64,000 bases of DNA, taken from positions 39,797 to 103,796 of the forward strand of contig CAYHUB010000001.1 in the NCBI GenBank assembly GCA_964359755.1, in the 5' to 3' direction. The stretch is from an uncultured Candidatus Saccharibacteria bacterium. Its GTDB lineage: Bacteria; Patescibacteriota; Minisyncoccia; GWC2-36-17; WO2-46-25. A program made the translations under genes and the position numbers. Positions 5,767 through 58,891 of the stretch are shown here, in pieces (positions within the stretch are counted from its first letter, which is position 1; every line of letters starts with the position of its first letter). Below the pieces are notes generated by a model, which was not told the DNA's origin, ran no database searches, and saw nothing but the letters and a program-made list of their open reading frames with translations.

Positions 5767-6233
5767 TCATTTATCTTGGCGCCGACCACGCGGGATTCGC
5801 GCTGAAGCAAAAAACGAAAGAATTTTTGGAAAGCGAAGGGTATGAGGTCGCGGATATGGGCGCGTATGCAAACAACGATGGCGACGACTACCCTGAGTTT
5901 ATTGCGGCGGCGGCACAAGCGGTCGCCAACGACCTTATTAAAGGCGTTGATTCGCGCGGGATCATTTTCGGCGGGTCGGGGCAAGGCGAGGCAATGGCGG
6001 CAAATCGCATTCACGGCATTCGCGCGGCGGTATTTTACGGCCCCTCGACTTCGCTCAGGACAGGCGGCCCGCTTGAAATAATAAAACTTTCACGAGAGCA
6101 TAATGACGCAAATATGCTTTCGATCGGTGCGCGGTTTGTTTCCGAGCAGGAAGCGCTTGATGCGGTGAAGCTGTGGCTCGACACCCCGTTTTCCAACGAA
6201 GAACGGCACAGAAGAAGGATAATGAAGTTCTAA
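5763..6233 (+). CDS. rpiB: ribose-5-phosphate isomerase B
   Basis: N-terminus MIIYLGADHAGFALKQK matches the RpiB/LacAB signature. Size is 156 aa. Confidence 0.88.
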   Translation: MIIYLGADHAGFALKQKTKEFLESEGYEVADMGAYANNDGDDYPEFIAAAAQAVANDLIKGVDSRGIIFGGSGQGEAMAANRIHGIRAAVFYGPSTSLRTGGPLEIIKLSREHNDANMLSIGARFVSEQEALDAVKLWLDTPFSNEERHRRRIMKF

Positions 6234-7071: not shown

Positions 7072-7968
7072 ATGACCACACTGCACGAAGAAAAAATAAA
7101 ACTACTCGAGGAAAAAGCAAATCTCATCAGGCAGAGCATCATTGAGATGCTTATTGAGGCAAAAAGCGGGCATTCCGCGGGGCCGCTTGGCATGGCGGAT
7201 GTATTCGCGCTTTTTTATTTCCACATCCTTAAACACGATCCGAAAAACCCGACATGGCCGGAACGGGACAGATTGATCCTGTCGAACGGGCATATTTGTC
7301 CGGTGTTGTATGCAACAATGGCGCACGCGGGTTATTTCCCTGTGGAGGAGTTGAAAACATTGCGAAAACTTCATTCGCGTTTACAAGGGCATCCGCACCG
7401 CGAATGGCTGCCGATGGTGGAAACGAGTTCCGGCCCGCTCGGCTCGGGGCTTTCGCAAGCGGTAGGCATGGCGCTTGCCGACAGGATGGACAACGGAAAG
7501 ACATCAGGGAAATTCTTTTATTGCTTCATGGGAGACGGCGAGCTTGATTGCGGGCAGGTGTGGGAAGCGACGATGCTCGCGGGCAAAGAAAAATTGCACA
7601 ATATCATCGGCGTTATTGACCGCAACAACATCCAGATTGACGGGTTTACCGAAGACATTATGCCGCTTGAACCGCTGAAAGAAAAATTCGAATCGTTCGG
7701 CTGGCATGTGCTTGAAGTGGACGGGCATAATTTTGAAGCGCTCTCCGACGCGGTAGGCCAAGCGCAGGCGGTTTTTGAAAAGCCGTCGATGATCATTGCG
7801 CATACGATCCCGGGGAAAGGAGTTGAATTCATGGAGCGTCGGTTTGAGTGGCACGGCGTACCGCCGGGCCAAGGACCGGAAGACAAAGTGAAGAAAGCCG
7901 AGCAGGGTCTTGAGGCGCTGAACGAGTTACGTACGCTCTGCGGCAAAATTAAATCTGAACATGAATAA
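7072..7968 (+). CDS. transketolase, N-terminal (TPP-binding) subunit
   Basis: GHSAGPLGMADV and GDGELDCGQVWEA motifs. The gene ends where the C-terminal subunit gene starts. Confidence 0.88.
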   Translation: MTTLHEEKIKLLEEKANLIRQSIIEMLIEAKSGHSAGPLGMADVFALFYFHILKHDPKNPTWPERDRLILSNGHICPVLYATMAHAGYFPVEELKTLRKLHSRLQGHPHREWLPMVETSSGPLGSGLSQAVGMALADRMDNGKTSGKFFYCFMGDGELDCGQVWEATMLAGKEKLHNIIGVIDRNNIQIDGFTEDIMPLEPLKEKFESFGWHVLEVDGHNFEALSDAVGQAQAVFEKPSMIIAHTIPGKGVEFMERRFEWHGVPPGQGPEDKVKKAEQGLEALNELRTLCGKIKSEHE

Positions 7969-25897: not shown

Positions 25898-27718
25898 ATG
25901 AGTTGGTTTCCTATTGCGATCATCGCGCAAATAATCCTTGGAACATCTGCGGTATTCGATAAGATGCTCCTGAAACGAAGTATTTTTAACCCCGCCGCCT
26001 ATACATTTTGGCTGGGCGTGCTTGGGTTGTTTGCGGTTTTTTTGATTCCCTTCGGGGTGTTCGGGTTGCCGGTAATGACTATTGGTGTCGCGCTTATTGC
26101 GGGCGCGCTGTTTCTGCTTGCGATGCTGTTTCTGTTTCTTTCACTGCATAAAACCGAAGCCTCAAAATCTCTTTTACTTATCGGGGGCATTACGCCGATC
26201 ACCACGCTTCTTGTCGGGTCATTTTTTCAGGATGGCTCGCTCGCGCCAGCGGATATTGTCGGTTTCGTGTTTCTGGTGCTTGGCGGGTTCGCGCTTTTTT
26301 TATCGGATAAAAAAGAGATACGGGGGAATGTTGCATTACTTGCATGCGCAAGCGCGGTATGCTTCGGGCTTTCTAATACGCTTACCAAACAGGTGTTTTT
26401 GGAGAGCTCGTTTACGGCGGGGTTTTTTTGGGTGAAGATCGGCGGGGTTTTATTCGTGCTATCGTTTCTTTTGCTTCCCTCTTTGCGCCGTTCCATATTT
26501 TCCGCGGTTCACCGCGATAACACCCACCATCACGCATTGTATGTTTTTAACAGGGGATACGCCGCCGCGGGGTCGGTGCTTATCAATGCTGCGATATTTT
26601 TAGCGCACCCCGCCTTGGTGGAGGCGACGCAGAGCATTAAATATGCGGTTATTTTTATAGCGTCATGGTTTCTTCTCGGTGAGCATTTCAAGGGAAAAGT
26701 GCTTGTAGGAAAGCTTGCTGCAATTACGCTCATCGGCGGCGGGTTTATATGGCTTGCAGGCGCGGATATCGCGCGCAACATCCCCGTTGACCCCGAGCGG
26801 CCTATTATATGGGGGGCAACGTTTTCTCAAAAATTCAGCCGTGAACTCGGGCTTGATTGGAAAGAGAATTTCACTGCGTTCATGGACGAGCTGAAGCCGC
26901 GCGCAGTACGGCTGGTTGCGTATTGGGATGATATTGAAAAGGATCACGGCACGCTTGATTTTTCGGAAACCGACTGGATGTTTGAAAAAGCGGCGCAAAC
27001 AGATGTGCGCGTGGTGTTTGCGGTCGGCATGAAGGCTCCGCGATGGCCGGAATGTCACATCCCGCAGTGGGCGAAAACGCTTGATACCGAAAAGCGCGAG
27101 GAAGCGTTGCTCGCGTATATGGGAAAGGTTGTTGACCGGTATCACGCAAATAACACGATTGCGATGTGGCAGGTGGAAAATGAGCCGTATTTGGCGTTTG
27201 GCGACTGTCCTGAACGCGGTGTGCGATTTCTGGAGAATGAAGTGGCGCTGGTAAAGTCGCTCGACACAGAGCATCGTATTATAACTACCGACGGAGGGGA
27301 ATTTGGGTTATGGTATAAAGCGGCAGAAGAAGGAGATGTGTTTGGCACGACGATGTACCGCAAAGTATATCCAAAAGTCATCGGGCCGAGGTTTGGTGTC
27401 GTGGAGTATCCGCTCGCGCCGAGCTTTTTCCGGTTCAAAGAAAAAGTGGTGCGGCGCATCCTTGGCGACTGGGACAAGCCGTTTATGGTGATTGAACTGC
27501 AGGCGGAGCCGTGGGGGCCAAAACACATTTCACAGCTTACCGACCAGGAACAGGATGAGATATTCAGCCCTGATTATTTCAACGAAACAATTGAATATGC
27601 GAAAGAAACAGGGTTTAATGAATATTATCTTTGGGGATCAGAGTGGTGGTACTGGAAGAAGCTCAAAGGCGACGAGCGGTATTGGGATATTGCTAAGGAA
27701 TTATTTTTGAAACAATGA
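25898..27718 (+). CDS. fusion protein: N-terminal DMT/EamA-like 10-TM domain plus C-terminal clan GH-A (GH5-like) glycoside hydrolase domain
   Basis: About 300 aa of polytopic membrane domain. Then WQVENEPY (acid/base NEP) and TDGGEFG (nucleophile-type) motifs. Confidence 0.65.
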   Translation: MSWFPIAIIAQIILGTSAVFDKMLLKRSIFNPAAYTFWLGVLGLFAVFLIPFGVFGLPVMTIGVALIAGALFLLAMLFLFLSLHKTEASKSLLLIGGITPITTLLVGSFFQDGSLAPADIVGFVFLVLGGFALFLSDKKEIRGNVALLACASAVCFGLSNTLTKQVFLESSFTAGFFWVKIGGVLFVLSFLLLPSLRRSIFSAVHRDNTHHHALYVFNRGYAAAGSVLINAAIFLAHPALVEATQSIKYAVIFIASWFLLGEHFKGKVLVGKLAAITLIGGGFIWLAGADIARNIPVDPERPIIWGATFSQKFSRELGLDWKENFTAFMDELKPRAVRLVAYWDDIEKDHGTLDFSETDWMFEKAAQTDVRVVFAVGMKAPRWPECHIPQWAKTLDTEKREEALLAYMGKVVDRYHANNTIAMWQVENEPYLAFGDCPERGVRFLENEVALVKSLDTEHRIITTDGGEFGLWYKAAEEGDVFGTTMYRKVYPKVIGPRFGVVEYPLAPSFFRFKEKVVRRILGDWDKPFMVIELQAEPWGPKHISQLTDQEQDEIFSPDYFNETIEYAKETGFNEYYLWGSEWWYWKKLKGDERYWDIAKELFLKQ

Positions 27719-28737
27719 AAAATATTGTCACTATTGGAGGAGGAACCGGCAGTTTCGTGTTGCTTTCGGGGCTTAAGCGGCACCCGGTAAATCTCTCCGC
27801 CATTGTCTCGATGGCGGATGACGGAGGTTCAACAGGTGTTTTGCGCGACGAACTTGGCGTATTGCCGCCTGGCGATATCCGCCAGTGTCTGGTGGCTCTT
27901 TCTGATTCTTCCGATGAGATGCGTCAGCTGATGAATTATCGGTTCGAGCGCGGCGCATTAAAAGGACATAGCTTTGGAAATCTTTTGTTAGGTGCGCTTG
28001 AGAAAATAAACGGAGGGTTTTTGGCGGGCTTAAAGGAAGCGGTTAAAATATTGAATGTGAAGGGCGAGGTTATTCCCGTGACAGCTGATGCGGTGAATTT
28101 GATCTTGGATTTGAAAGACGGAAGCACGATTAAAGGAGAGGCGGCGATTAACCGCAGCTCCGTTCTTGAGCGCATTGGCATTAAGCGGCTCTATCTTCGC
28201 CCGCGCGCGCACGCAAACGCCCATGCGATCAAGAAGATCAAAGAAGCTGATATTATCATTATTGGACCCGGTAATTTTTATTGCAGTATTATTCCGAACC
28301 TGCTGGTAGATGGCATCGCCGATGCGATACGAATATCGAAAGCAACGGTTATCTTTAATTGTAATCTCGTAAACAAGAACGGGCATACCGAGCGGTTCAC
28401 ACTGGATGATTATGTCGATGTTATTAACGGATACTTAGGGGGGAATAGGATCGATTTTGTCACCTTCAACGGAAAGAAGCCGGCAAAAATGTTGGTGCAA
28501 AAATACGGCAGGAAGCGCGAATTCCTTGTCCCGTTCACAAAAGAGGATCGGGCTGAGCGTAGTTATAAAGTGATCGTTACTGACTTGCTTTCTGCAGCGT
28601 CGCAGAAATATGCCAAGGCAGATTTGCTTGCGAAATACAGGGCATTCATTCGTCACGATGTTGAAAAATTAGCAAAGATCATTATGTTCATTTCAGAGAT
28701 CGAAGAGAATAAGGATATCATTGAAAAGATCATTTAA
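27715..28737 (+). CDS. YvcK/CofD-like gluconeogenesis-factor family protein (UPF0052)
   Basis: IVTIGGGTGSFVLLSGL...MADDGGSTGVLR signature. Confidence 0.85.
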   Translation: MKNIVTIGGGTGSFVLLSGLKRHPVNLSAIVSMADDGGSTGVLRDELGVLPPGDIRQCLVALSDSSDEMRQLMNYRFERGALKGHSFGNLLLGALEKINGGFLAGLKEAVKILNVKGEVIPVTADAVNLILDLKDGSTIKGEAAINRSSVLERIGIKRLYLRPRAHANAHAIKKIKEADIIIIGPGNFYCSIIPNLLVDGIADAIRISKATVIFNCNLVNKNGHTERFTLDDYVDVINGYLGGNRIDFVTFNGKKPAKMLVQKYGRKREFLVPFTKEDRAERSYKVIVTDLLSAASQKYAKADLLAKYRAFIRHDVEKLAKIIMFISEIEENKDIIEKII

Positions 28738-34957: not shown

Positions 34958-35299
34958 TTACTTTCGAAACACGATGTGTGTTATGAAATTCACCGCGCTG
35001 ACAAGCAGCGTCGCGAGAAAAAGCGCTCCGACACTTGCAATACTCATGTGCGGGAGGAGAAGGTCGGTGACCCATAGCACCCCCATATTGATGACCACAA
35101 TGAAAAGTCCTAAGGTAAGCAGAATGATCGGCCCCAGTAGTAATTTAAGCAGCGGTTTGAGGAAGAAATTTGCCGCAGAAAATACAAGTCCGACGATGAG
35201 TACGCTCTGCCACCCTCCGCTGATCGTTACCCCCGCGATATAATACGAAGCAAGGAATAACGCCAGTACATTTCCAAAGACAAGGGCGATTAATCTCAT
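34958..35299 (-). CDS. DUF360/YvlD-like membrane protein (phage-holin-4 superfamily)
   Basis: 113 aa, 3-4 TM helices, FLKPLLKLLLGPIILLTLGLFIVV pattern. TATAAT sits 8 nt upstream of the ATG, with no SD. Confidence 0.6.
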   Translation of the reverse strand: MRLIALVFGNVLALFLASYYIAGVTISGGWQSVLIVGLVFSAANFFLKPLLKLLLGPIILLTLGLFIVVINMGVLWVTDLLLPHMSIASVGALFLATLLVSAVNFITHIVFRK

Positions 35300-35719: not shown

Positions 35720-35787
35720 CTGTTTTTGTGATAAAATAAAACAGAGCGGTGAATTTTTCACCGCTCTGAATGTTGTGTGATTTTACA

Positions 35788-35979
35788 TCACTTTTTCCGC
35801 TTTTTGAAGTTATCTACTCCTTTTTCAAAAGCATCTCTCCTCTCTGCGTTGTTACTATGATCGCCAATCATTTGGCCTCTGTGCTGAAGGTGAAAAAGTC
35901 CCGCACCCTCGCTTTCTTCCTTCGCCCATTTTTGACCAGCTTCATACAAATCTTCTTTTTCTTCACTCTTAATACTCAT
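35788..35979 (-). CDS. small hydrophilic protein, 63 aa (MSIKSEEKEDLYEAGQKWAKEESEGAG...), unknown function
   Basis: AGGAGGTG SD 7 nt upstream of the Met at 35979; the ORF-track start at 36033 is probably too long. Downstream hairpin terminator at 35741-35768 followed by TTTATTTT. Highly charged, no TM. Confidence 0.65.
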   Translation of the reverse strand: MSIKSEEKEDLYEAGQKWAKEESEGAGLFHLQHRGQMIGDHSNNAERRDAFEKGVDNFKKRKK

Positions 35980-36166
35980 TGCAATCACCTCCTTTCTTCG
36001 GAAGAATCGCGCTTGGCAGATTTTAATAAACATCTGCGGCTAGATATGTATAGTACATATCTTAGGGGCTGCATATATGTATATCAGATCTGCTTTATCT
36101 TGTCAAATTTTTAGGTTAATGATTCCACGCTAATAGAGGTAGAGAGCTTTTTTGTACACGATGCAT

Positions 36167-36202: not shown

Positions 36203-36775
36203 ATGATTTTATCAGACAGAGACATCAAGTTATACATCAAGGAAGGCGGGCTGGGGTTCAAGCCGAAACTGAGCGAGGATCAGATTGGACCGGCATCGAT
36301 TGACCTGAAGCTCGGAAATATCTTCAAATTATTCCGTCCGGAACGGTATTTGAGTTTGGACGTAAAAAAAGGCATCCCGGTTGAGTACTTGGAAGCAGTT
36401 ACCGTGAAAGACGGGGATCCGTTTATTTTGCATCCGCATATGTTCGTCCTTGCCGCGACAAAGGAGTATGTCACTATCCCCGATGATATTTCAATGAAAG
36501 TGGAGGGAAAAAGTACACTCGGGCGCATGGGGCTTTTGGTGCATACCGCGGGGTTTATTGATCCGGGATTCGAGGGGCATATCACGCTTGAGCTTTCCAA
36601 TCAGGCAAATTTGCCGATCACCATTTACCCGGGGATGTATGTCTGCCAGGTGGATTGCCAAATGATGTCGAGCCCCGCGGAAGTTCCGTACAACAAGAGA
36701 AAGAAATCCATTTATTCGAAGCAAAGAGGTCCTACCGCGCCGAATACAAAAAACTTATTTGAGCATAAAGGATGA
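36203..36775 (+). CDS. dcd: dCTP deaminase
   Basis: MILSDRDIKLYIKEG N-terminus and beta-barrel dUTPase-like fold motifs. 190 aa. Confidence 0.85.
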   Translation: MILSDRDIKLYIKEGGLGFKPKLSEDQIGPASIDLKLGNIFKLFRPERYLSLDVKKGIPVEYLEAVTVKDGDPFILHPHMFVLAATKEYVTIPDDISMKVEGKSTLGRMGLLVHTAGFIDPGFEGHITLELSNQANLPITIYPGMYVCQVDCQMMSSPAEVPYNKRKKSIYSKQRGPTAPNTKNLFEHKG

Positions 36776-36796
36776 TCGTTTACATATTTATACAGT

Positions 36797-36832
36797 AAAA
36801 GCGAGCCGTGTTATGGCTCGCTTTTATTTTTT
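36797..36832. terminator. terminator hairpin (aaaagcgagcc/ggctcgctttt) between convergent dcd and the ThyX-like gene
   Basis: 11-bp stem followed by TATTTTTT. Confidence 0.7.
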
Positions 36833-36841
36833 ATATTTCAG

Positions 36842-38566
36842 TTACTTCAGAGGAATTCCCGTGCCGCCGCGGGCAAAGATATATGCCGGCGTCGTATTTG
36901 CGCGGGAAAGCTTTTCCCACCACGGATATGCTCTGCGCATATGCCGTTCCATCGCGAGAAAGATCTGGCGCACTTCGTGGTTCACGGAGAATTTGCTCCG
37001 TTGCCAGTTGCAAAATTCGATTTCAAGCATATTTGAAGCAAGCAGGAAGCCGATCATATTGCCCAATGAAAGCGGATATTGCATGAGCTCATCCGGAACG
37101 CCCTTTTCCTTCATTTCCGTATACAGCGCGAGGTTCGCGGCATGTATCTTTTCAAATGCTTCCGTAAGCGCGGCAGGCGCTTGCTTGTCGTAGCGGTAAA
37201 ATCCAAGCAGGGGAGTGACATACGTACGCAGATGCGTGCAGAATCCCTGCCGCTGGACGTCGCGCCATCCGCGGAATGTTATCATTCCGGCAAATGAGGC
37301 GCTTGCGAGCTCAAATTCGTTCGGGAGCTTGTCGTATTCTCCTCTCGGCGTTTCAAGGAGTTTGCCGACAACATCCGCAAACGCTATACAGTGTTCGTAC
37401 CCGATCTTTCGTGAGAATGCGCGATAGATCGTTTCTTCAGCTATTGCCGGGCTGTCCATAACCACGACCGCGTCAATTTCTGCTAATGCGTCATTTCCTG
37501 CAAACGGGGCGGTCGAAAGATATTTCCATGATTCCTGCTTCCATGCGCTCGCCTCGGTGTGGCGGATGAATTGGTCAACGCCTGTTTTTTTTGCCTCGAC
37601 GAGAATCTCGTCCACCAGCGCGATATTTTCCGGCGTGTTGTCGAGTATGAGGTGCCGGATAAGCTCCTGGAGCCCTTCGCCCGATACATTCACGCCGACG
37701 GAAGTTTGGGTACCGCAAGGCAAGAAATTACCCAGCACGTCGCACGTTTCGCCGATCACGCCGCTTTCAAGGTCTTTCTCGTTTCCCGCAAACAATGCGC
37801 CGTACTGTTTCCGTAGAAACTGCGGGAACGGACCGGTGAATTTTTCGCCTTCAAGGTCGGTGTAGAACGAAAACGCTCCGTCCATGACATCCTGCACTTT
37901 TTTCTCGTCTACGCCGTACGTGGCAAGCTCCTTGTGTATCGGGTAGTAGCCGCGCTTGCTCATATCAACGTAGCGGGTAGAAAGCTCGATATAGCCGGCG
38001 CCGGGACGGCCCCATTCGAGCGATTTTGCCGCAAGCGCGGAGATCTGTTCAAAGCATATCCATATCGCGCCCATACGCGCGATGGAGTTGTGGCCGTACG
38101 CGTCGAGCCAGCGCTTCATGAACCGCATGATCTTTTCCGCGTGCGTGAGCTCCTCAAGGAATTTCGTGTCCACGCGCACCGCATCGCGAAATGCTTCCCA
38201 TGCTTTTTTTGTTTCTGACGAGTGCGCGACGAACGCGTCGAACGATGTGATGTTGTGATGCTTGAGAAATTGCATACCATCGCCGCCAAACTTCTCTGCG
38301 GTTTCTTTCAGCATGCTTGCGAGCATCTCCGGCATGAAGTTGTCCGCGAATATACCGCGCAAACCCCGCGGATTTTTCATGCGCGAGAACATGGACAACA
38401 GCGCCGTTCCGATGCTTTGCGGAAGCGTGTGCATCAGATACACTTTTTTTTCCGTGTTTGTGAAAAACGGAGCAAGCAATTCCTGCTCGAGTTTCGTGAA
38501 CGAATAGACCGGTGTTGCAACGAACGATCGTGCGTGTGCGAGTGCTGATTTTGGGTACGTATGCAT
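36842..38566 (-). CDS. tandem-duplicated ThyX-like (flavin-dependent thymidylate synthase fold) protein, 574 aa, with degenerate RHR motifs
   Basis: The C-terminal half aligns by eye to ThyX: GVPDE...PLSLGN...NMLEIEFCNWQRSKFSVNHEVRQI...AYPW versus ThyX GVPRE..LPLNL...NFLNLRADSHAQWEIQQ...CPW. The N-terminal half carries YIELSTRYV (ThyX YNELSGRY) and LPCGTQT...IRH. The canonical R-H-R is replaced in both halves. AGGAGG SD 7 nt upstream. Confidence 0.65.
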   Translation of the reverse strand: MHTYPKSALAHARSFVATPVYSFTKLEQELLAPFFTNTEKKVYLMHTLPQSIGTALLSMFSRMKNPRGLRGIFADNFMPEMLASMLKETAEKFGGDGMQFLKHHNITSFDAFVAHSSETKKAWEAFRDAVRVDTKFLEELTHAEKIMRFMKRWLDAYGHNSIARMGAIWICFEQISALAAKSLEWGRPGAGYIELSTRYVDMSKRGYYPIHKELATYGVDEKKVQDVMDGAFSFYTDLEGEKFTGPFPQFLRKQYGALFAGNEKDLESGVIGETCDVLGNFLPCGTQTSVGVNVSGEGLQELIRHLILDNTPENIALVDEILVEAKKTGVDQFIRHTEASAWKQESWKYLSTAPFAGNDALAEIDAVVVMDSPAIAEETIYRAFSRKIGYEHCIAFADVVGKLLETPRGEYDKLPNEFELASASFAGMITFRGWRDVQRQGFCTHLRTYVTPLLGFYRYDKQAPAALTEAFEKIHAANLALYTEMKEKGVPDELMQYPLSLGNMIGFLLASNMLEIEFCNWQRSKFSVNHEVRQIFLAMERHMRRAYPWWEKLSRANTTPAYIFARGGTGIPLK

Positions 38567-38655
38567 AGATTCCTCCTGTTAAGGTTATAGTTTATTGGTA
38601 AAGTGCACGGTGTGCATGATTTGTATCATAGCGCTGGAAAGGATGCAAATCATCA

Positions 38656-39444
38656 TCACTGTGCGGCGATAACACAATTGGTAAATAAATGAATAACGGT
38701 CAATGGGCCGATACCGCCGGGAACCGGGGTAAGGATCGCCGCGCGTGAGCGTACCTTCGCACCATGCACATCGCCGACGATCGTTCCTTTATAAATGCTC
38801 GCCCCCGCATCAATGACGCGCGCGCCCTTTTTCACTGTGGTAATAAGATTTGCTTTACCGACACCGGACACGATGATATCAGCATCTTTGGTGAGCGCGG
38901 AAATATTTTTTGTCGTGTGATTGGCGACGACGATATTATTAAACCCGCGCGCGCGTAAGAACGCATGAAGTGGTTTGCCGATAACACGGCCATAGCCGAT
39001 GATCGCGATGCGGTCAGATGTTTTCGGCGCACCGGCATAGGAAAGCATCTCCCAGATAGCGGCAACCGCAGGAGCGACGAATGGCGAGTTCCCGCGCAAA
39101 TTATCAACGTCTTTCTTTGCGGCAATCGCGGCAAGAACACGATCGGTATCTGTGCGCTTTGGTAGGGGAAGCTGCACGATAATGCCATGAACCGCGGTGT
39201 TCGCATTTAGTTTTTTAACCTGCGTGATGATGTAGTCGGTTGTTGTATTTTCGGGAAGGTGTAACAAAAAAAAGCCGCACCCAAGTTGTATTGCCATGCG
39301 TTCCTTTTGGCGCACATACGAAAGCGAAGCGGGGTCGTTTCCCACAAGCACCACCGCAAGCGCCGGCGGCGTTTTCATGCCGCGCACTTTTTTTGCGATA
39401 GCCCGTTCGTGTTTTTTTACAAATGGCGCGCTTGAAAGTATCAT
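38656..39444 (-). CDS. folD: bifunctional 5,10-methylene-tetrahydrofolate dehydrogenase / cyclohydrolase
   Basis: [18 protein letters not shown] and GIIVQLPLP blocks. 262 aa. Confidence 0.88.
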
Positions 39445-40667
39445 CGTGACGTAAGTTCGCGTACTGCGCTTTTTGTTTTTTCTTTTTGTTCGTCGGTCGG
39501 GTTTTTGAGCGTATCTGCGATGAGCTTGCCGATAACTTTCATTTCCGCTTCTTTCATGCCTCGCGCGGTGAGCGCCGGCGTGCCAAGACGGATACCCGAC
39601 GGGTCTGCGGGTTTGCGCGTGTCAAACGGGATCATATTGAAATTTGCGTAGATATCGCACTCGGCAAGCGCGTCCGCGCCTTGCTTGCCTGAAATACCAA
39701 GCCCTGTGCAATCAATGATCATTAAATGCGTATCGGTGCCGCCTGATACGAGGCGCAACCCTTCGCTCATCAGCGCTTCTGCGAGCACTTTTGCATTTTT
39801 TACGATCTGTTGTTGATATTTTTTATACTCGTCCGTCATCGCTTCTTTAAAACATACCGCTTTTGCCGCGATAATGTGCTCAAGCGGACCGCCCTGCATG
39901 CCGGGGAACACCGTTTTGTCGATCTGTTTTGCAAATTGCTCTTTGCATAAAATAATGGCACTACGAGGACCGCGCAGTGTTTTGGTGGTTGTGGTCATGA
40001 CGACATCATGCGTTGGCACAGGACTTTCGTGCACACCCCCGACGACAAGCCCTGCGATGTGCGACATATCCGCCATCGCGTATGCCCCGACCTCTCGCGC
40101 AATTTCAGCGAAGCGCGAAAAGGGGACTGCTCGAGGATATGCGGTGAAGCCCGAAACAATAAGTTTCGGCTTTACTTCCCGCGCAAGCGCCGCAACTTTA
40201 TCCATATCCAATACTTCCGTGTCTTGCTCAACGCCGTAATGTACAAAGTTAAACAGTTTTCCCGAAAGCGACACGGGGTGGCCGTGCGTGAGATGACCGC
40301 CATGCGAAAGGTTCATCGCTAAAATAGTATCGCCCGGTTCAAGGAGCGCGAAATAACACGCGAGATTCGCCTGCGAGCCGGCGTGCGGCTGGACATTCGC
40401 GTGTTCCGCACCGAATAACGCTTTTGCGCGGTCAATGGCAAGCTGTTCTATCTGGTCGATATACTGAGCTCCCGTGTAGTAGCGTTTGCCCGGATACCCT
40501 TCGGCGTATTTATTGGTGAGTACCGTCCCTGCGGCCTCAAGTACCGCGTCAGATGCGATGTTTTCAGATGCGATCATTAAAAGCCCTTCCTGCTGGCGCT
40601 TTTCTTCCTGCGCGATAAGCGCATCGAGTTCGGGGTCAACCTGTGGCAGATGATGTCGTGGGATCAT
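39441..40667 (-). CDS. glyA: serine hydroxymethyltransferase
   Basis: LIASENIAS...[14 protein letters not shown] and PLP-lysine region. Start moved to the internal Met ([14 protein letters not shown]); the ORF-track start at 40745 overlaps the upstream gene. Confidence 0.9.
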
Positions 40668-40738
40668 TGTGTATATAGTACGACAGAGCGCCTCTACAGT
40701 GCAAATTCTGTATAAGCATCGCGGGGCAGGAACGATCT

Positions 40739-42763
40739 TTACCACAAAAATACTTCCAATTTCACTTCAGCATCATACGTATCGCTACTTTCAGCTCCGG
40801 AATATGCTTCGGTTATTTTTGATCCTATAAATATCAATTTCCATTTCGGGCCGCCTCGATAACCAACCTCCGCGCTGATCTTTTCAGACGAGGGAATAAA
40901 TCTTTCGTATTCTGATGTTGCTTTTTCATAGCCCAATTCACCCTTCCATTTCTCGCTGGCAACGCCACCTTTAATTTTAATTTTTTTACCCCAATCAAGC
41001 TCGCTCCCCGCCGCTTCTAAATTTAAAACTTGCACCTCATTGACCTTTACTCCTGTTCCAACGGTGAATGTTTTTGCCACCTCTTTTATTATTGGATCCT
41101 GGTTCTGGAAATCATTTTTTTGTTCGCGAAACATTTCCTGTGCACCGATATAAAATTTCCCGGTTTCGGAAGGATTGATATATATCAACCTCATTCCCGC
41201 CCCAGCTTCACTCATGTTACTCATAGTTCCAATTCCTATTTCTTCATCAAGCGGCAAACTCAAAGCTCCCTGAAAAGTCGCGCCAAAATTCAATATAAAT
41301 TTCCCGTAATCTTCTTTGGTAAATGCATGACTGTCTATGTAATCTGCCGCCAAGCGGGTGATAATTTCATCTTGCGCAACATTGCCTCCATATAAATCTT
41401 TTATGTTCATATGCACTACGGTCGCATCTGCCTCAAATCCAAGCCTCTCGCTTTTTACATTCAATCTCCCCCGTAAGGCGTTCAAATCTTCTAATGATTG
41501 ATATGGATTATTGTTAAAATCCTGAAAATTAAAATATGCCACGGCAAAAGTATCTTTGTTTAATTTGATTTCTTTGACTTCCGGGCTTACGTTGATCTCA
41601 AGTCCTCTTTCTTTTTTAAGCTCACCGCTTGAAAGTTCTCCTTCCAGTCTTTCCGCTGTTTCTTCAATTCCCGCCGCTTTTTCAACTACCTCCTGCGCGC
41701 GACTTTTCACTGGAAATAGCACTTCTTTTTCATTACTAACGAAGGAATGAAATGTCGCTACTGACCTATGGTATCGCTCTGCAACACCAAGAGCCTCCGG
41801 ATATTTCTCTGTGTCAGTTAGTATTAAGGTCCCATAATCACTAAAACCTATTTTCCTTTTCCCGTTAATATCCAGAGCAAATCCAGACCAAACATGTCCG
41901 CCCTGCTCGGTAGAGCCGTTTTGTAGCCATGCTTCCAATCCAAGACTTTTGGCTATTTTTGTCAAAAAAGTATGAATATTGCCGCAGATGCCAGTTCTGG
42001 TGATTTTTCCTGTCATTAATAACTCTCTGAGCGCAGAAAACATTGCGTCATCAGAAATTTCGATATGTTGATTTTTCTCAAGCATATCGAAGTTATAGGT
42101 TCGTCCAAGTGCATTCCCTATATATTGTAAAACTAGGGTTTTTTGATCATCGCTTAATTTATTCTTTTCACCGGATAATGCAGTAAAAAACTCCTTGGAA
42201 TTATTTGATTGAAATATAGAATTCAATTCCGTATCTATCGCACTGTCAAATTCTTGGTGTGAAAGATCTTTATAAAAATCAGAGCCGATCATGGTATTGT
42301 AACCATTAGCCTGTATTGCTTCCGGCCTTCCTTTTGGTATTTTCTCAAATTCACCACTAACAGAGATCTCTATCTTGTCGGCGAACTTCTCCCAATCAAA
42401 CGGCGCAAACTCGTCTTTTTTGTCGGAAGCGATCATTTTTTCAAATAACTCCTGCGGGGATAGCTTTTCTATTGTTGTTTCTTCTATCTGGTTTTCCGGA
42501 GACAATTTCCCCTTGTTTATTTCCTCCTTCTTAAGTCCCTCGGCAAAAGTAGATGCTGCGCTCGTAACTATCGAAAGCGCCGCGAGGCAAGCGACGGCCT
42601 CCTTTTTAAATTTCTCCGGCACTAATTTCATTAAAAAACCCTCGGTTTCTTTTTGGATGACCGATTCCTTTTCGTTAAAATCTTCAAAGATCGCCTCTTT
42701 TTCTTCCGGCGAAGTCTCTTCTTCGAGATATTCCTTTTCGAGTTCGAAATTATTTTCAGACAT
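40739..42763 (-). CDS. large envelope protein with a transglutaminase-like Cys-His-Asp core (DUF3857/TGase/DUF3858-like architecture), in an AT-rich island
   Basis: Acidic N-terminus then TM helix ([19 protein letters not shown]). TGase-like core G-I-C-G-N...GGHVWSGF...D. Beta-rich C-terminus ending in F-L-W. Local GC about 38-42%, against about 52% in the flanks. Confidence 0.6.
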
Positions 42764-54898: not shown

Positions 54899-56449
54899 CT
54901 ACATTCCCTGCAACACAGAGAGTGCTTTATCCAATTGAGGGTCGCGGCCGGCTTGGCGGTCTTCATCGGTGAGAGGAAGCACGATATCAGGGTCGATGCC
55001 GTGTTCTTCAAACGCCTTTCCTGATGGGCGCAGCCATTGGGCGGTGGTGATCTTCATCGTGGTACCGCCCGCAAGCCGTATCACCTCTTGAATAGTCCCC
55101 TTTCCGAACGACTTCTCGCCTATCAGTGTCGCTCCTTTTGAATCCTTCAGCGCGCCCGCAAGTATCTCTGACGCGGACGCGGAACCGCCGTTAATAAGCA
55201 CGACAACTGCCATATTTTCTGCAATGCCGCCTCCGGGCGAGATGAATTCGTTTTTATCTTTTCCTGCGCCGAAATCGGCGCTCACGATGATCTTTCCCTT
55301 CGGCACGAATTGCGCGGCGATATTGATAGACGCGTCAAGTAAACCACCCGGATTGTCGCGCAGATCAATGATAAGTTTTTTCGCGCCATCCGCTTGCGCT
55401 TCTTTGAGCGCATTAATGAAGTCGTATTCGACACCGCCAAAGAAATTGTGGATCTTGATATAGGCGATGTCGTTAGTTTTTTTGCTCCACTTTATCGTCG
55501 GGACCTTGATGGTCTCGCGCACGATGCGAAACTCCAGCAACGCGTCGGTGCCGAGCCGTTCTATAAGAAGCTTCACCTCCGTACCTTTTTCTCCGCGGAT
55601 ATGCGTTACCGCGTCTTCCACGGTCATGTCTATCGTGGACTGGTCGTTTATCTTCACTATCTTATCCCCTGCTCTAATGCCCGCGCGCTCAGCCGGCATC
55701 CCCGAAAGCGGCGCGACCACCACCACGCCTTTTTTATACCCAAGCTCCGCGCCGATGCCGCCAAACTCGCCCGCGACATCTTCCGCGAATTTCTTTGATT
55801 CTTCCTGTTTAAACAGCACGCTATAGGGGTCGCCGAGCGACTTAAGCACGCCTTCTGCGGCTCCCTGTACCATTTTCTGCTGGTCAAGCGTGGTGCTGTT
55901 CTTATGCTTTTCTATAACAGTTTTCCATACATTCCATAGCAAACCAAAATCAACTCCCGCGGGCACATCAGAATATGCGGGAATAGGGGTTATCTCAAGC
56001 GTGACGGTTGCGCCCTCCGAAGAAGATATTTTATCTGCGACATCGGCGCCGTCTTTGTAGTGGCTAAAGTCAACCGCATTGACCGGTTTTATTGCGTTCC
56101 AGTTGAAATTATTTGCATTGAACGCTTCAGGCGTGCGCACCCATCGCTTCTCTTCTCCCCGTACATGATATACTTTTGTGTCACCAGTCGGCTTGACCGC
56201 CTGAACATCGGGATACGCATTGAGCGTGGCGGGCGCGACCTCTTTTACATCTGCCCATTTGAATTTATACGAATTGAAAATTTCCGCGGTGCGCAGCCAA
56301 TATTTCTGCCCGTGAAAAAGCACGAATGTTTTTGACTCTCCTTGAGCGCGGATAAGCGCACCATCAGAAAGCGTCTGCGCGGATACCGTATACGGGAAAA
56401 CAACGAATGCGCTTACGAGAACAATACCGACAATTATTTTTTTGATCAT
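54899..56449 (-). CDS. S41-family C-terminal processing peptidase with N-terminal tandem ~45-aa repeats and a PDZ domain
   Basis: PDZ (GIGAELGY...AGIRAGDKIVKIN), S41 core (LIIDLRDNPGG, GEKSFGKGTIQ). Two N-terminal repeats (KTFVLFHGQKYWLRTAEIFNSYKFKW / KVYHVRGEEKRWVRTPEAFNANNFNW). Confidence 0.85.
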   Translation of the reverse strand: MIKKIIVGIVLVSAFVVFPYTVSAQTLSDGALIRAQGESKTFVLFHGQKYWLRTAEIFNSYKFKWADVKEVAPATLNAYPDVQAVKPTGDTKVYHVRGEEKRWVRTPEAFNANNFNWNAIKPVNAVDFSHYKDGADVADKISSSEGATVTLEITPIPAYSDVPAGVDFGLLWNVWKTVIEKHKNSTTLDQQKMVQGAAEGVLKSLGDPYSVLFKQEESKKFAEDVAGEFGGIGAELGYKKGVVVVAPLSGMPAERAGIRAGDKIVKINDQSTIDMTVEDAVTHIRGEKGTEVKLLIERLGTDALLEFRIVRETIKVPTIKWSKKTNDIAYIKIHNFFGGVEYDFINALKEAQADGAKKLIIDLRDNPGGLLDASINIAAQFVPKGKIIVSADFGAGKDKNEFISPGGGIAENMAVVVLINGGSASASEILAGALKDSKGATLIGEKSFGKGTIQEVIRLAGGTTMKITTAQWLRPSGKAFEEHGIDPDIVLPLTDEDRQAGRDPQLDKALSVLQGM

Positions 56450-57679: not shown

Positions 57680-58891
57680 TTATTTTAAACTCCGTGCGAT
57701 CTCAAACGCCTTTTCACGTTGAGGATCTTTCCCCGCGTCCCTGTCTTCCGCGGTTGTTTCCACCTTCACCGTCGGCTCGATCCCTTGCTCGTGAATGGAC
57801 GCGCCTGACGGCGTAAGCCATTTTGCGACGGTTATTTTTATGCTTGTGCCGTCTGCGAGATCAACAACCTCCTGCACCGATCCTTTTCCGAATGTTTTCT
57901 CTCCGACGAGCGGAACATCGCGCGCATCCCTTAACGCGCCAGCAACGATTTCAGCCGCAGAGGCAGACCCCTCGTTGATGAGCACGACGACCGGCATGGT
58001 TTGGAAATACCGATATCCGTTGGAGCGAAACTCATTGCGTCCTTTGCCGTTGTCGCCGAAATCCTCTATCGCAACGATCTTCCCTTCCGGAATAAAGAAA
58101 CTTGCGGTCTCGATTGCGGAATCAAGGAATCCTCCTGCGTTATTGCGCAGATCAAGCACGACGCTCTTTGCGCCTCGCGCAAGCGCTTGTCGGGCGGCTA
58201 TTTGAAATTCCTGATCGACATCGCCAAGGAAGTTGAAGAGCTGTATATATGCCACATTGCCCTCTTCCATGCGTAATTCCACCAAAGGCATCTTGATGAT
58301 GTCCCGCACAATACTAAAGTCTCGCGGTTCATCGAATCCGTCGCGCATAATATTTAAAAGCACTTTTGTGCCGCGCTCGCCGCGGATCTTTAACACCGCT
58401 TCCTCAAGTGATAATTCACCGGTAAAAACGCCGTCGATCTTGCCAATCTTATCTCCCGCGCGAAGGCCTGTTTTTTCCGCAGGAGAATCCTTGAGTGGCG
58501 CAATAATGGTCAGGATACCGTTTTTAAAACCGATCTCCGCGCCGATTCCCGAGAAACTGCCGTTGATGTCGTCCCCGAGCATCCGTGACTGATCGGGCGT
58601 GAAAAACGAGGTATACGGGTCGCCCAGCGATGCTACCATCCCTTCCACCGCTCCATACACCATTTTTTGCGGATCGATCGTTTTACGGTCGACGTATTTA
58701 TCGGTTGCCGTTTTCCATGCGTCCCAGAAGATGTCAAAATCCGCCTGCACGCCGGCCGGCTGTTCTTTATGCGTAACGCTTTGTACTTTGTTAAGCGATG
58801 GCACGGAACTCTCTCCGGCGTAAAACCCGAACGAATACGCAAGAAAGACTACAAAAGCGGCGCACACGAATTTTAGAATACGTTTAAACAT
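57680..58891 (-). CDS. S41-family C-terminal processing peptidase (paralogue of 54899..56449)
   Basis: The GDPY...GIGAE...AGLRAGDKI...DLRNNAGG...GEKTFGKGS blocks parallel those of the first S41 gene. Confidence 0.85.

Follow-up and report, generated by a model that had tools for sequence, protein, structure and literature searches.

Can a protein that carries the fold of the flavin-dependent thymidylate synthase ThyX twice, and the motif by which ThyX is recognized in neither copy, still make thymidine monophosphate (dTMP)? The question is raised by a gene at positions 36842-38566 (minus strand) of a 64,000-nucleotide stretch of DNA from an uncultured Candidatus Saccharibacteria bacterium (assembly GCA_964359755.1, contig CAYHUB010000001.1), the whole of which was analysed and is referred to here as the window. 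The open reading frame (ORF), hereafter fused thyX, has an ATG start and a stop codon at 36842-36844 and encodes a protein of 574 amino acids (aa). In the literature and in annotation models, ThyX is defined by RHR(X7)S, which holds the phosphates of flavin adenine dinucleotide (FAD) and touches both the flavin ring and deoxyuridine monophosphate (dUMP). We consider it likely that the gene encodes a working, single-chain, internally duplicated ThyX thymidylate synthase; pyrimidine methylation dependent on methylene-tetrahydrofolate (methylene-THF) is well supported, and turning dUMP into dTMP is the most likely reaction.

Two ThyX folds fused head to tail

The whole protein matches the Pfam family Thy1 (PF02511, gathering cut-off 24.8 bits) with 63.3 bits in two separate stretches. 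When the protein is cut at residue 345, as in the half-by-half search that an earlier, sequence-only reading of this locus (the original prediction) had proposed, both parts pass the cut-off alone: the N-terminal fold (N-half, aa 1-345; 37532-38566, minus strand) with 39.6 bits and the C-terminal fold (C-half, aa 346-574; 36845-37531, minus strand) with 25.4 bits. Foldseek searches with an AlphaFold2 model of the N-half (predicted local distance difference test score 88.6) returned ThyX structures only, with template modelling (TM) scores of 0.49-0.58, and the whole-protein Foldseek result agrees with this assignment. The two ThyX folds placed head to tail by the original prediction are thus borne out by the separate Thy1 matches and the ThyX-only structure matches, and the motif strings that it had listed (EWGRPGAGYIELSTRY, LPCGTQTS, FRGWRDVQRQGF, GVPDE, YPLSL and YPWW) were all found as written.

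At the level of direct sequence comparison the relationship is distant. In a search of Protein Data Bank (PDB) sequences, the Thermotoga maritima enzyme (TmThyX) was a marginal match (phmmer E=0.11; family profile E=0.003), and an hhalign comparison of the N-half with the C-half gave no detectable similarity (E=0.18). Since the kinship of the two halves shows only when each is compared with the ThyX profile and fold that they share, we regard the duplication as ancient.

Distribution of the fused family

The close homologues of the protein were all 560-600-aa proteins from metagenome-assembled genomes of Patescibacteria (Candidate Phyla Radiation, CPR), and those with names were labelled either "FAD-dependent thymidylate synthase" or "hypothetical protein". 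A two-motif scan of GTDB species genomes gave 43 loci, all of them from Patescibacteria and spread over many candidate lineages, the closest being Candidatus Azambacteria RBG_16_47_10 with 87% identity. The gene copy of this relative (locus L008) looks split at about 7100-7160 because of consecutive N there (masked sequence or an assembly gap), not because of a frameshift. When 1.84 billion representative proteins were searched with a profile, 2179 matched at E<=1e-3, including 980 at E<=1e-10, and these fall into two tiers. The first is the Patescibacteria clade itself (tier 1), with about 60 representatives above 300 bits. The second (tier 2, hereafter the sister family) consists of proteins of about 500-560 aa with E-values of 1e-32 to 1e-45 that match both halves of the profile, over profile positions of about 140-550 and in one to three stretches. 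With the sister-family alignment as the query, at least 8000 matches were obtained at E<=1e-10, and the named proteins among the matches listed came from DPANN archaea (Woesearchaeota, Micrarchaeota, Aenigmarchaeota and "ainarchaeum"), where they are annotated as FAD-dependent thymidylate synthase.

In the merged alignment the clade and the sister family are collinear over their full length, except that the N-half of the clade has a helical insert (about 45 aa; aa ~88-135; 38162-38302, minus strand) that is not present in the sister family or in canonical ThyX; within the clade it is 34% identical, compared with 54-58% in the two ThyX cores. The head-to-tail fusion of ThyX is common and already annotated as ThyX, and is not new; likewise, the duplication and the degenerate motif in the N-half are the norm of the family rather than an anomaly. 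Fused ThyX is common to CPR bacteria and DPANN archaea (sister-family proteins P0393-P0509; loci L050 and L051), both of which are ultra-small and host-dependent, and the gene may have passed between the domains, or the single-chain form may have been of advantage to both. Our literature searches turned up no account of a fused or RHR-less ThyX from Patescibacteria.

Active-site residues of the two halves

Canonical ThyX (e.g., TM0449, PDB 1O26, and Rv2754c, PDB 2AF6), which belongs to the same Pfam family, has four active sites, each formed by three subunits: one supplies the equivalent of R174 and the RHR motif, which holds FAD by its phosphates and ribityl chain and, through its leading Arg, also touches the isoalloxazine ring and dUMP; a second binds the FAD phosphates through S71 and R190 in Mycobacterium tuberculosis (Mtb) numbering, corresponding to T55 and R165 in T. 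maritima (Tm); and a third provides the dUMP lid with Mtb R87, Q103, S105, R107 and Y108 (PMC6514825). dUMP is activated by R174, and S88 and Y91 are in contact with the flavin carbinolamine (PMC8316439). We give all residue equivalents in Tm numbering. They were drawn from HMMER alignments to TmThyX, from hhalign comparisons with an alignment of canonical Thermotogae ThyX and from sister-family sequences; because the direct PDB sequence matches are marginal, the register was taken from the profile-profile alignment and the sister family. The hhalign E-values against canonical ThyX were 7e-4 for the N-half and 2.9e-5 for the C-half with profiles of the Patescibacteria clade alone, and improved to 1.8e-7 (93.7%) and 3.9e-12 (97.6%), respectively, with profiles merged from the clade and the sister family. 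Frequencies of motifs are from a census of 164 proteins of the clade and 196 of the sister family.

The N-half keeps the folate/flavin loop G158-H159-N-S161-I-A-R164 (38075-38095, minus strand), which hhalign places on Tm G52-H53-E-T55-P-F-E58 and which reads GHNSIAR in 135/164 clade members. It also holds a remnant of the ThyX motif, R187-P-G-A-G-Y-I-E194-L-S196-T-R198-Y199 (37970-38008, minus strand; phmmer and hhalign to TmThyX), in which the first part is degenerate, yet the Ser/Arg/Tyr part survives. The loop of the substrate lid is thereby kept (E194=E86, S196=S88, R198=R90 and Y199=Y91), K181 corresponds to R74, and RPG and ELSTRY are found in 131 and 125 of the 164 clade members. R187 is the sole Arg of the RHR triad left in this half and may represent either R78 or R80; its register is ambiguous because R187 and E194 are seven residues apart, compared with eight for R78 and six for R80 in the canonical protein. 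Further along, G279 in the stretch D276-V-L-G279-N280-F-L-P283 (37718-37741, minus strand) stands at the position of canonical R147, which is Arg in the sister family, and S295-G-E297 (37676-37684, minus strand) replaces canonical N163-A-R165, with the charge reversed at the invariant E297 (both by hhalign). Altogether, the hhalign alignment gives no equivalents in the N-half of H79, one of R78/R80, R147, N163, R165 and R174.

In the C-half, the stretch R432-G-W-R435-D-V-Q-R439-Q440-G441 (37244-37273, minus strand) places R435 on R74, R439 on R78, Q440 on H79 and G441 on R80. This register is set by the sister family, which has (G)AYRDLQRHR at identical columns, and the merged-profile hhalign agrees; an alternative register with W434=W76 and R435=R78, which came partly from the first hhalign run, was dropped as the sister-family YRDLQRHR occupies those columns. 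The stretch N512-M-L514-...-W521-Q-R523 (36998-37033, minus strand) corresponds to Tm N163...R174, the two end residues being 11 apart in both, so that R523 stands for the dUMP-activating R174, and its WQR is found in 151/164 clade members. E531 corresponds to E182 and is kept, Q496 stands at the R147 position, and L514 at the R165 position; an equivalent of R165 is thus confined to the C-half of about 100 of the 164 clade members and is Leu in the present protein. In the alignment, the C-half is without equivalents of H53, H79, R80, R147 and the E86-Y91 loop, and its lid loop, which lacks E86 and S88, is five residues shorter than the canonical one.

The absence of RHR(X7)S from both halves, as stated by the original prediction, holds on proper alignment: the N-half has R187-P-G-(X6)-S196, and the C-half has R439-Q-G without the Ser. 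While each canonical ThyX subunit of about 220 aa, four of which are identical, carries the full set of residues, neither of the two diverged folds of this 574-aa chain does so. Equivalents of H53, T55, R74, R78, E86, S88, R90, Y91, N163 and R174 are nevertheless present somewhere in the chain, and those of R78, E86, S88, R90, Y91 and R174 are split, E194/S196/R198/Y199 belonging to the N-half and R439/R523 to the C-half. The division of labour is the same in the sister family, with RxG and E-K-S-T-R-Y in the N-half and R74/R78 and N163...R174 in the C-half. As judged from the alignments, in both families the RHR/R174 role can fall to the C-half alone and the lid can come from the N-half alone, a complementary degeneration that would reduce the composite sites from four to two. 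A canonical active-site set that is cleanly partitioned over two fused and diverged folds in a very large family of ultra-small cells looks like a natural experiment.

A combination of losses specific to the Patescibacteria clade

The Patescibacteria proteins differ from those of the sister family, which are likewise fused (~525-560 aa) and retain RHR, R147 and Arg at R165, where the present protein has RQG, G279 and E297. At the RHR site of the C-half, members of the clade have RQG, RMG, RQQ or RQS, with no Arg at the third position in any of the 164 proteins, compared with RHR in 189/196 of the sister family; some divergent clade members keep His at the H79 position (16 of the 164 listed). 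At the R147 site of the N-half, the clade has Gly (DVLGNxLP) and the sister family has Arg in 195/196 proteins (DxLRxLLP), and at the N163/R165 site, SGE in 145/164 clade proteins stands opposite NGR, NAR or DGR in 173/196. The H53 site shows the opposite trend, with GH in the clade and mostly GD in the sister family. RHR and R147 are both missing, and Glu stands at the R165 position of the N-half and His at H53, in 162 of the 164 clade members; none of the 196 sister-family proteins shows this combination. Since canonical ThyX and the sister family agree at these positions, the state of the clade is the derived one. What sets the clade apart, on the scale of a phylum, is therefore that its C-half has lost H79/R80 and its N-half the equivalents of R147, N163 and R165.

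It can also be observed that the sister family mostly has Asp (GDDSVAE) at the site of the invariant folate-stacking His53 (the H159 column), for which the clade has His, and that each of the two fused branches has lost different canonical residues.

Conservation and selection

The ratio of non-synonymous to synonymous substitution rates (dN/dS) was 0.074 in a comparison with locus L007 (87% amino-acid identity), and residues 131-345 and 346-574 gave 0.04 and 0.11, respectively. Such strong purifying selection indicates that the fused ThyX is neither decaying nor merely structural. In an alignment of 38 family sequences with a mean identity of 49%, dozens of Arg, His, Ser and Glu residues are invariant in both halves; among them are R439, R523, S196, R198 and H159, with Y199 nearly so. 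New residues have also become invariant in the clade, namely R164 in the GH loop, R432 (seven residues before R439), H445, E297 and N280.

These results bear on the suggestion, made by the original prediction, of a non-catalytic pseudo-dimer. A pseudo-enzyme that serves as a scaffold or regulator and keeps only the fold would fit the absence of the family-defining motif from both halves and the weak similarity to solved ThyX structures described above. Against it speak the overall dN/dS and the dozens of invariant columns, the low dN/dS of both halves (0.04-0.11), the invariant or nearly invariant active-site residues R439, R523, S196, R198, H159 and Y199, the operons shared with tmk, dcd, glyA and folD (see below), and the occurrence of homologues across many Patescibacteria candidate lineages. 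We hold a pseudo-enzyme to be very improbable, and the pseudo-dimer was discarded on the grounds of conservation and selection.

Linkage to the dTTP pathway

In the window, the gene order is glyA, folD and fused thyX, all on the minus strand, with a 4-base-pair (bp) overlap between glyA and folD and 89 bp between folD and fused thyX. The product of glyA (39441-40745) is serine hydroxymethyltransferase (SHMT; Pfam SHMT 507.7 bits from residue 34, NCBIfam NF000586 593.6 bits), and that of folD (38656-39444) is methylene-THF dehydrogenase/cyclohydrolase (Pfam THF_DHG_CYH and THF_DHG_CYH_C; NCBIfam FolD models also match, all below their cut-offs). That both genes lie directly upstream, as had been claimed, is confirmed by these matches and the common strand. 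The neighbouring dcd gene (36203-36775, plus strand), for deoxycytidine triphosphate (dCTP) deaminase (TIGR02274 180.5 bits, cut-off 92.8; Pfam DCD), had been taken to be divergent and is in fact convergent: the two genes stand tail to tail, and the 66-bp gap between them holds a bidirectional intrinsic terminator (36794-36828) with a 16-bp stem and A and T runs at its sides.

The context was further surveyed in 49 related loci of the Patescibacteria clade (L001-L049), which were searched iteratively. In 13 distinct loci the thymidylate kinase gene tmk precedes fused thyX on the same strand by at most 150 bp; dcd is found within about 2 kb of fused thyX in 11, and same-strand dcd-tmk-thyX clusters occur in L009, L015, L035, L040 and L041, about 0.7-2 kb upstream of fused thyX, which stands at about position 6001. 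Two loci of the sister family from DPANN archaea were also examined, and here the gene follows that of SHMT with tmk nearby, or lies near folD. In the flanks of the 49 loci neither thyA nor a second, separate thyX was detected. The window has 63 non-overlapping ORFs of >=70 aa, and its 57 largest were found to include none of thyA, dut, tmk and a further thyX.

The conclusion of the original prediction that this context points to C5-methylation of a pyrimidine stands, as methylation dependent on methylene-THF and in view of the linkage to tmk and dcd; hydroxymethylation, which it had named alongside, is retained only among the rival chemistries. One rival reading is a neofunctionalised ThyX-like flavoenzyme with a different pyrimidine substrate or chemistry (uridine monophosphate (UMP), as in PolB, deoxycytidine monophosphate (dCMP), deoxyuridine triphosphate (dUTP), hydroxymethylation or a polynucleotide), in which the rebuilt phosphate-binding residues would reflect a new substrate and not a new mode of flavin binding. 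The loss of the R147, N163/R165 and H79/R80 equivalents as a fixed package, a score far below the cut-off of the thyX equivalog model, and the new clade-invariant residues R164, R432, H445, E297 and N280 all agree with it. PolB (PDB 4P5A), a ThyX-fold C5-methylase of UMP/dUMP from polyoxin biosynthesis, is a precedent for another nucleotide substrate, as the original prediction had envisaged; the comparison covered fold and context, and PolB is a single-domain enzyme of secondary metabolism, in contrast to the housekeeping, dTTP-pathway context found here. Opposed to a new substrate are the dTMP-specific tmk, which immediately precedes fused thyX in 13 distinct loci, the recurrent dcd-tmk-thyX clusters, and the link of glyA and folD to fused thyX in the window. 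The residues that recognise or activate uracil are kept as well (R523=R174, S196/Y199, R198 and R439), and no other candidate gene for dTMP synthesis was seen near these loci; this synthesis is listed in the minimal gene repertoire of Patescibacteria (PMC12455944). With the residues of the chemistry kept and the linkage to tmk and dcd, a different substrate or chemistry is a minority possibility that we judge to be unlikely; if the protein were not a dUMP methylase, these organisms would have an unexplained route to dTMP.

The dcd-tmk-thyX clusters of diverse Patescibacteria form a compact module from dCTP via dUMP and dTMP to thymidine diphosphate (dTDP). Since the clusters have no separate dut, their Dcd may be of the bifunctional deaminase/dUTPase type. 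One locus (L006:11870-12979, minus strand) encodes, near the fused ThyX P0071, a 369-aa DCD protein (DCD_N, DCD and DCD_C) about twice as long as the 190-aa Dcd of the window, and thus a second internally duplicated enzyme of the pathway.

A proposed composite active site and the binding of flavin

Taken together, a working single-chain ThyX would function as follows. The two ThyX folds would no longer be equivalent, the canonical residues having been shared out between them: the C-half would take the role of the subunit that gives RHR and R174 (R435=R74, R439=R78 and R523=R174), while the N-half would give the substrate lid (E194, S196, R198 and Y199), K181 (=R74) and the GHxS loop (H159/S161 = H53/T55). 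Two chains would then assemble into the equivalent of a ThyX tetramer with two complete composite sites in place of four. There, dUMP would be methylated to dTMP by methylene-THF, which, to judge from the gene context, may be made and interconverted by the co-transcribed GlyA and FolD; dUMP may come from the neighbouring Dcd, and in many relatives dTMP may pass to the adjacent Tmk. The metabolic neighbours (SHMT, FolD, Dcd and Tmk) are those of canonical ThyX. Griffin et al. are said to have described, in J Biol Chem in 2005, a ThyX of Chlamydia trachomatis of about 530 aa that is an active thymidylate synthase dependent on FAD and reduced nicotinamide adenine dinucleotide phosphate (NADPH); if so, this form of twice the usual length shows that such a protein can be a real enzyme.

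Several points weigh against a working ThyX. The defining motif is in neither half, and in the alignments H79, R80 and R147 have no equivalent anywhere in the chain; R147, which we take to be a ligand of the dUMP phosphate, is also among five positions that are invariant in canonical ThyX, kept in the sister family and lost in the Patescibacteria clade. The NCBIfam thyX equivalog model TIGR02170 (cut-off 87.9 bits) failed, matching only the C-terminal 85 residues with 17.4 bits (E=0.0025). The dimer and its two-site geometry are ones that we infer, and no biochemically characterised member of either fused family was found in the literature. A clade on the scale of a phylum has thus lost the His and the second Arg of the motif and three other invariant residues, yet is under strong selection and linked to the dTTP pathway.

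Within the reading as a working ThyX, the methylene-transfer chemistry would be kept, while the pocket for the flavin phosphates (adenosine diphosphate (ADP) moiety) has probably been rebuilt, since H79, R80 and R165, three of the five lost residues, contact the phosphates and ribityl chain of FAD in solved ThyX structures and R165 has given way to an invariant Glu; R432, R164, H445 and N280 are candidates for residues of a new pocket. On a more ordinary view the protein would be a fused ThyX without any functional difference, in which FAD is bound normally, R432, R164 and H445 compensate and the loss of the motif is neutral drift. The residues of the chemistry and the gene contexts are indeed the same as in the sister family, new invariant basic residues stand near the lost ones (R432 and R164), and His is kept at the H79 position in the divergent members noted above. 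This view has to contend with five changes that are fixed together in 162/164 proteins, with no intermediates that have Arg at R80, R147 or R165, and with the replacement of R165 by an invariant Glu, a charge reversal that is hard to square with an unchanged pyrophosphate contact; we consider it possible and somewhat doubtful. Equally tentative is the proposal that a ThyX without H79, R80, R165 and R147 uses its flavin in a new way across the Patescibacteria/CPR, either as flavin mononucleotide (FMN) or another flavin, or as FAD in a different pocket, maybe with another reductant.

An active enzyme would narrow the minimal requirements for flavin-mediated methylene transfer; annotation based on motifs or equivalogs would then under-call thymidylate synthase in CPR genomes, and the question would arise of which flavin these cofactor-poor organisms use. 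Should flavin indeed be used in a new way, flavin-dependent thymidylate synthesis could do without the "ThyX motif".

Other features of the window

A strong Shine-Dalgarno sequence, AGGAGG (38572-38577, minus strand), was read 5 nucleotides 5' of the ATG of fused thyX. The longest glyA ORF starts with a GTG at 40745, which adds 26 residues that do not match SHMT and creates a 7-bp overlap with the upstream ORF; translation probably begins at the ATG at 40667 (MIPRHH...), which fits the start of the SHMT profile. Directly upstream of glyA lies an ORF for an acidic protein of 674 aa (40739-42763, minus strand), the best Pfam match of which has E=0.07 (DUF7439) and in which a crude scan detected no strongly hydrophobic 19-aa stretch. 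It was rejected as a part of the unit for want of a Pfam hit and because L008, the closest relative, has no such ORF upstream of glyA.

The rest of the 64-kb window is ordinary CPR housekeeping DNA. A perfect hairpin with a 12-bp stem and a minus-strand T-run at 35742-35768 is probably another bidirectional terminator; it stands just before an unannotated 114-aa ORF (35770-36114) and about 440 bp from a PF04020 "phage holin 4-TMS" gene (34958-35299). A CofD/YvcK-family protein is encoded at 27715-28737 (plus strand; PF01933, 290 bits) in an organism that is not expected to make F420. As PF01933 also covers YvcK-type proteins, it is probably a paralogue of that type, and the gene was dropped as a hint of a deazaflavin cofactor since nothing links it to fused thyX. 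Finally, two genes for S41 (Ctp-type) PDZ peptidases are found about 1.2 kb apart at 54899-56449 and 57680-58891, both on the minus strand.

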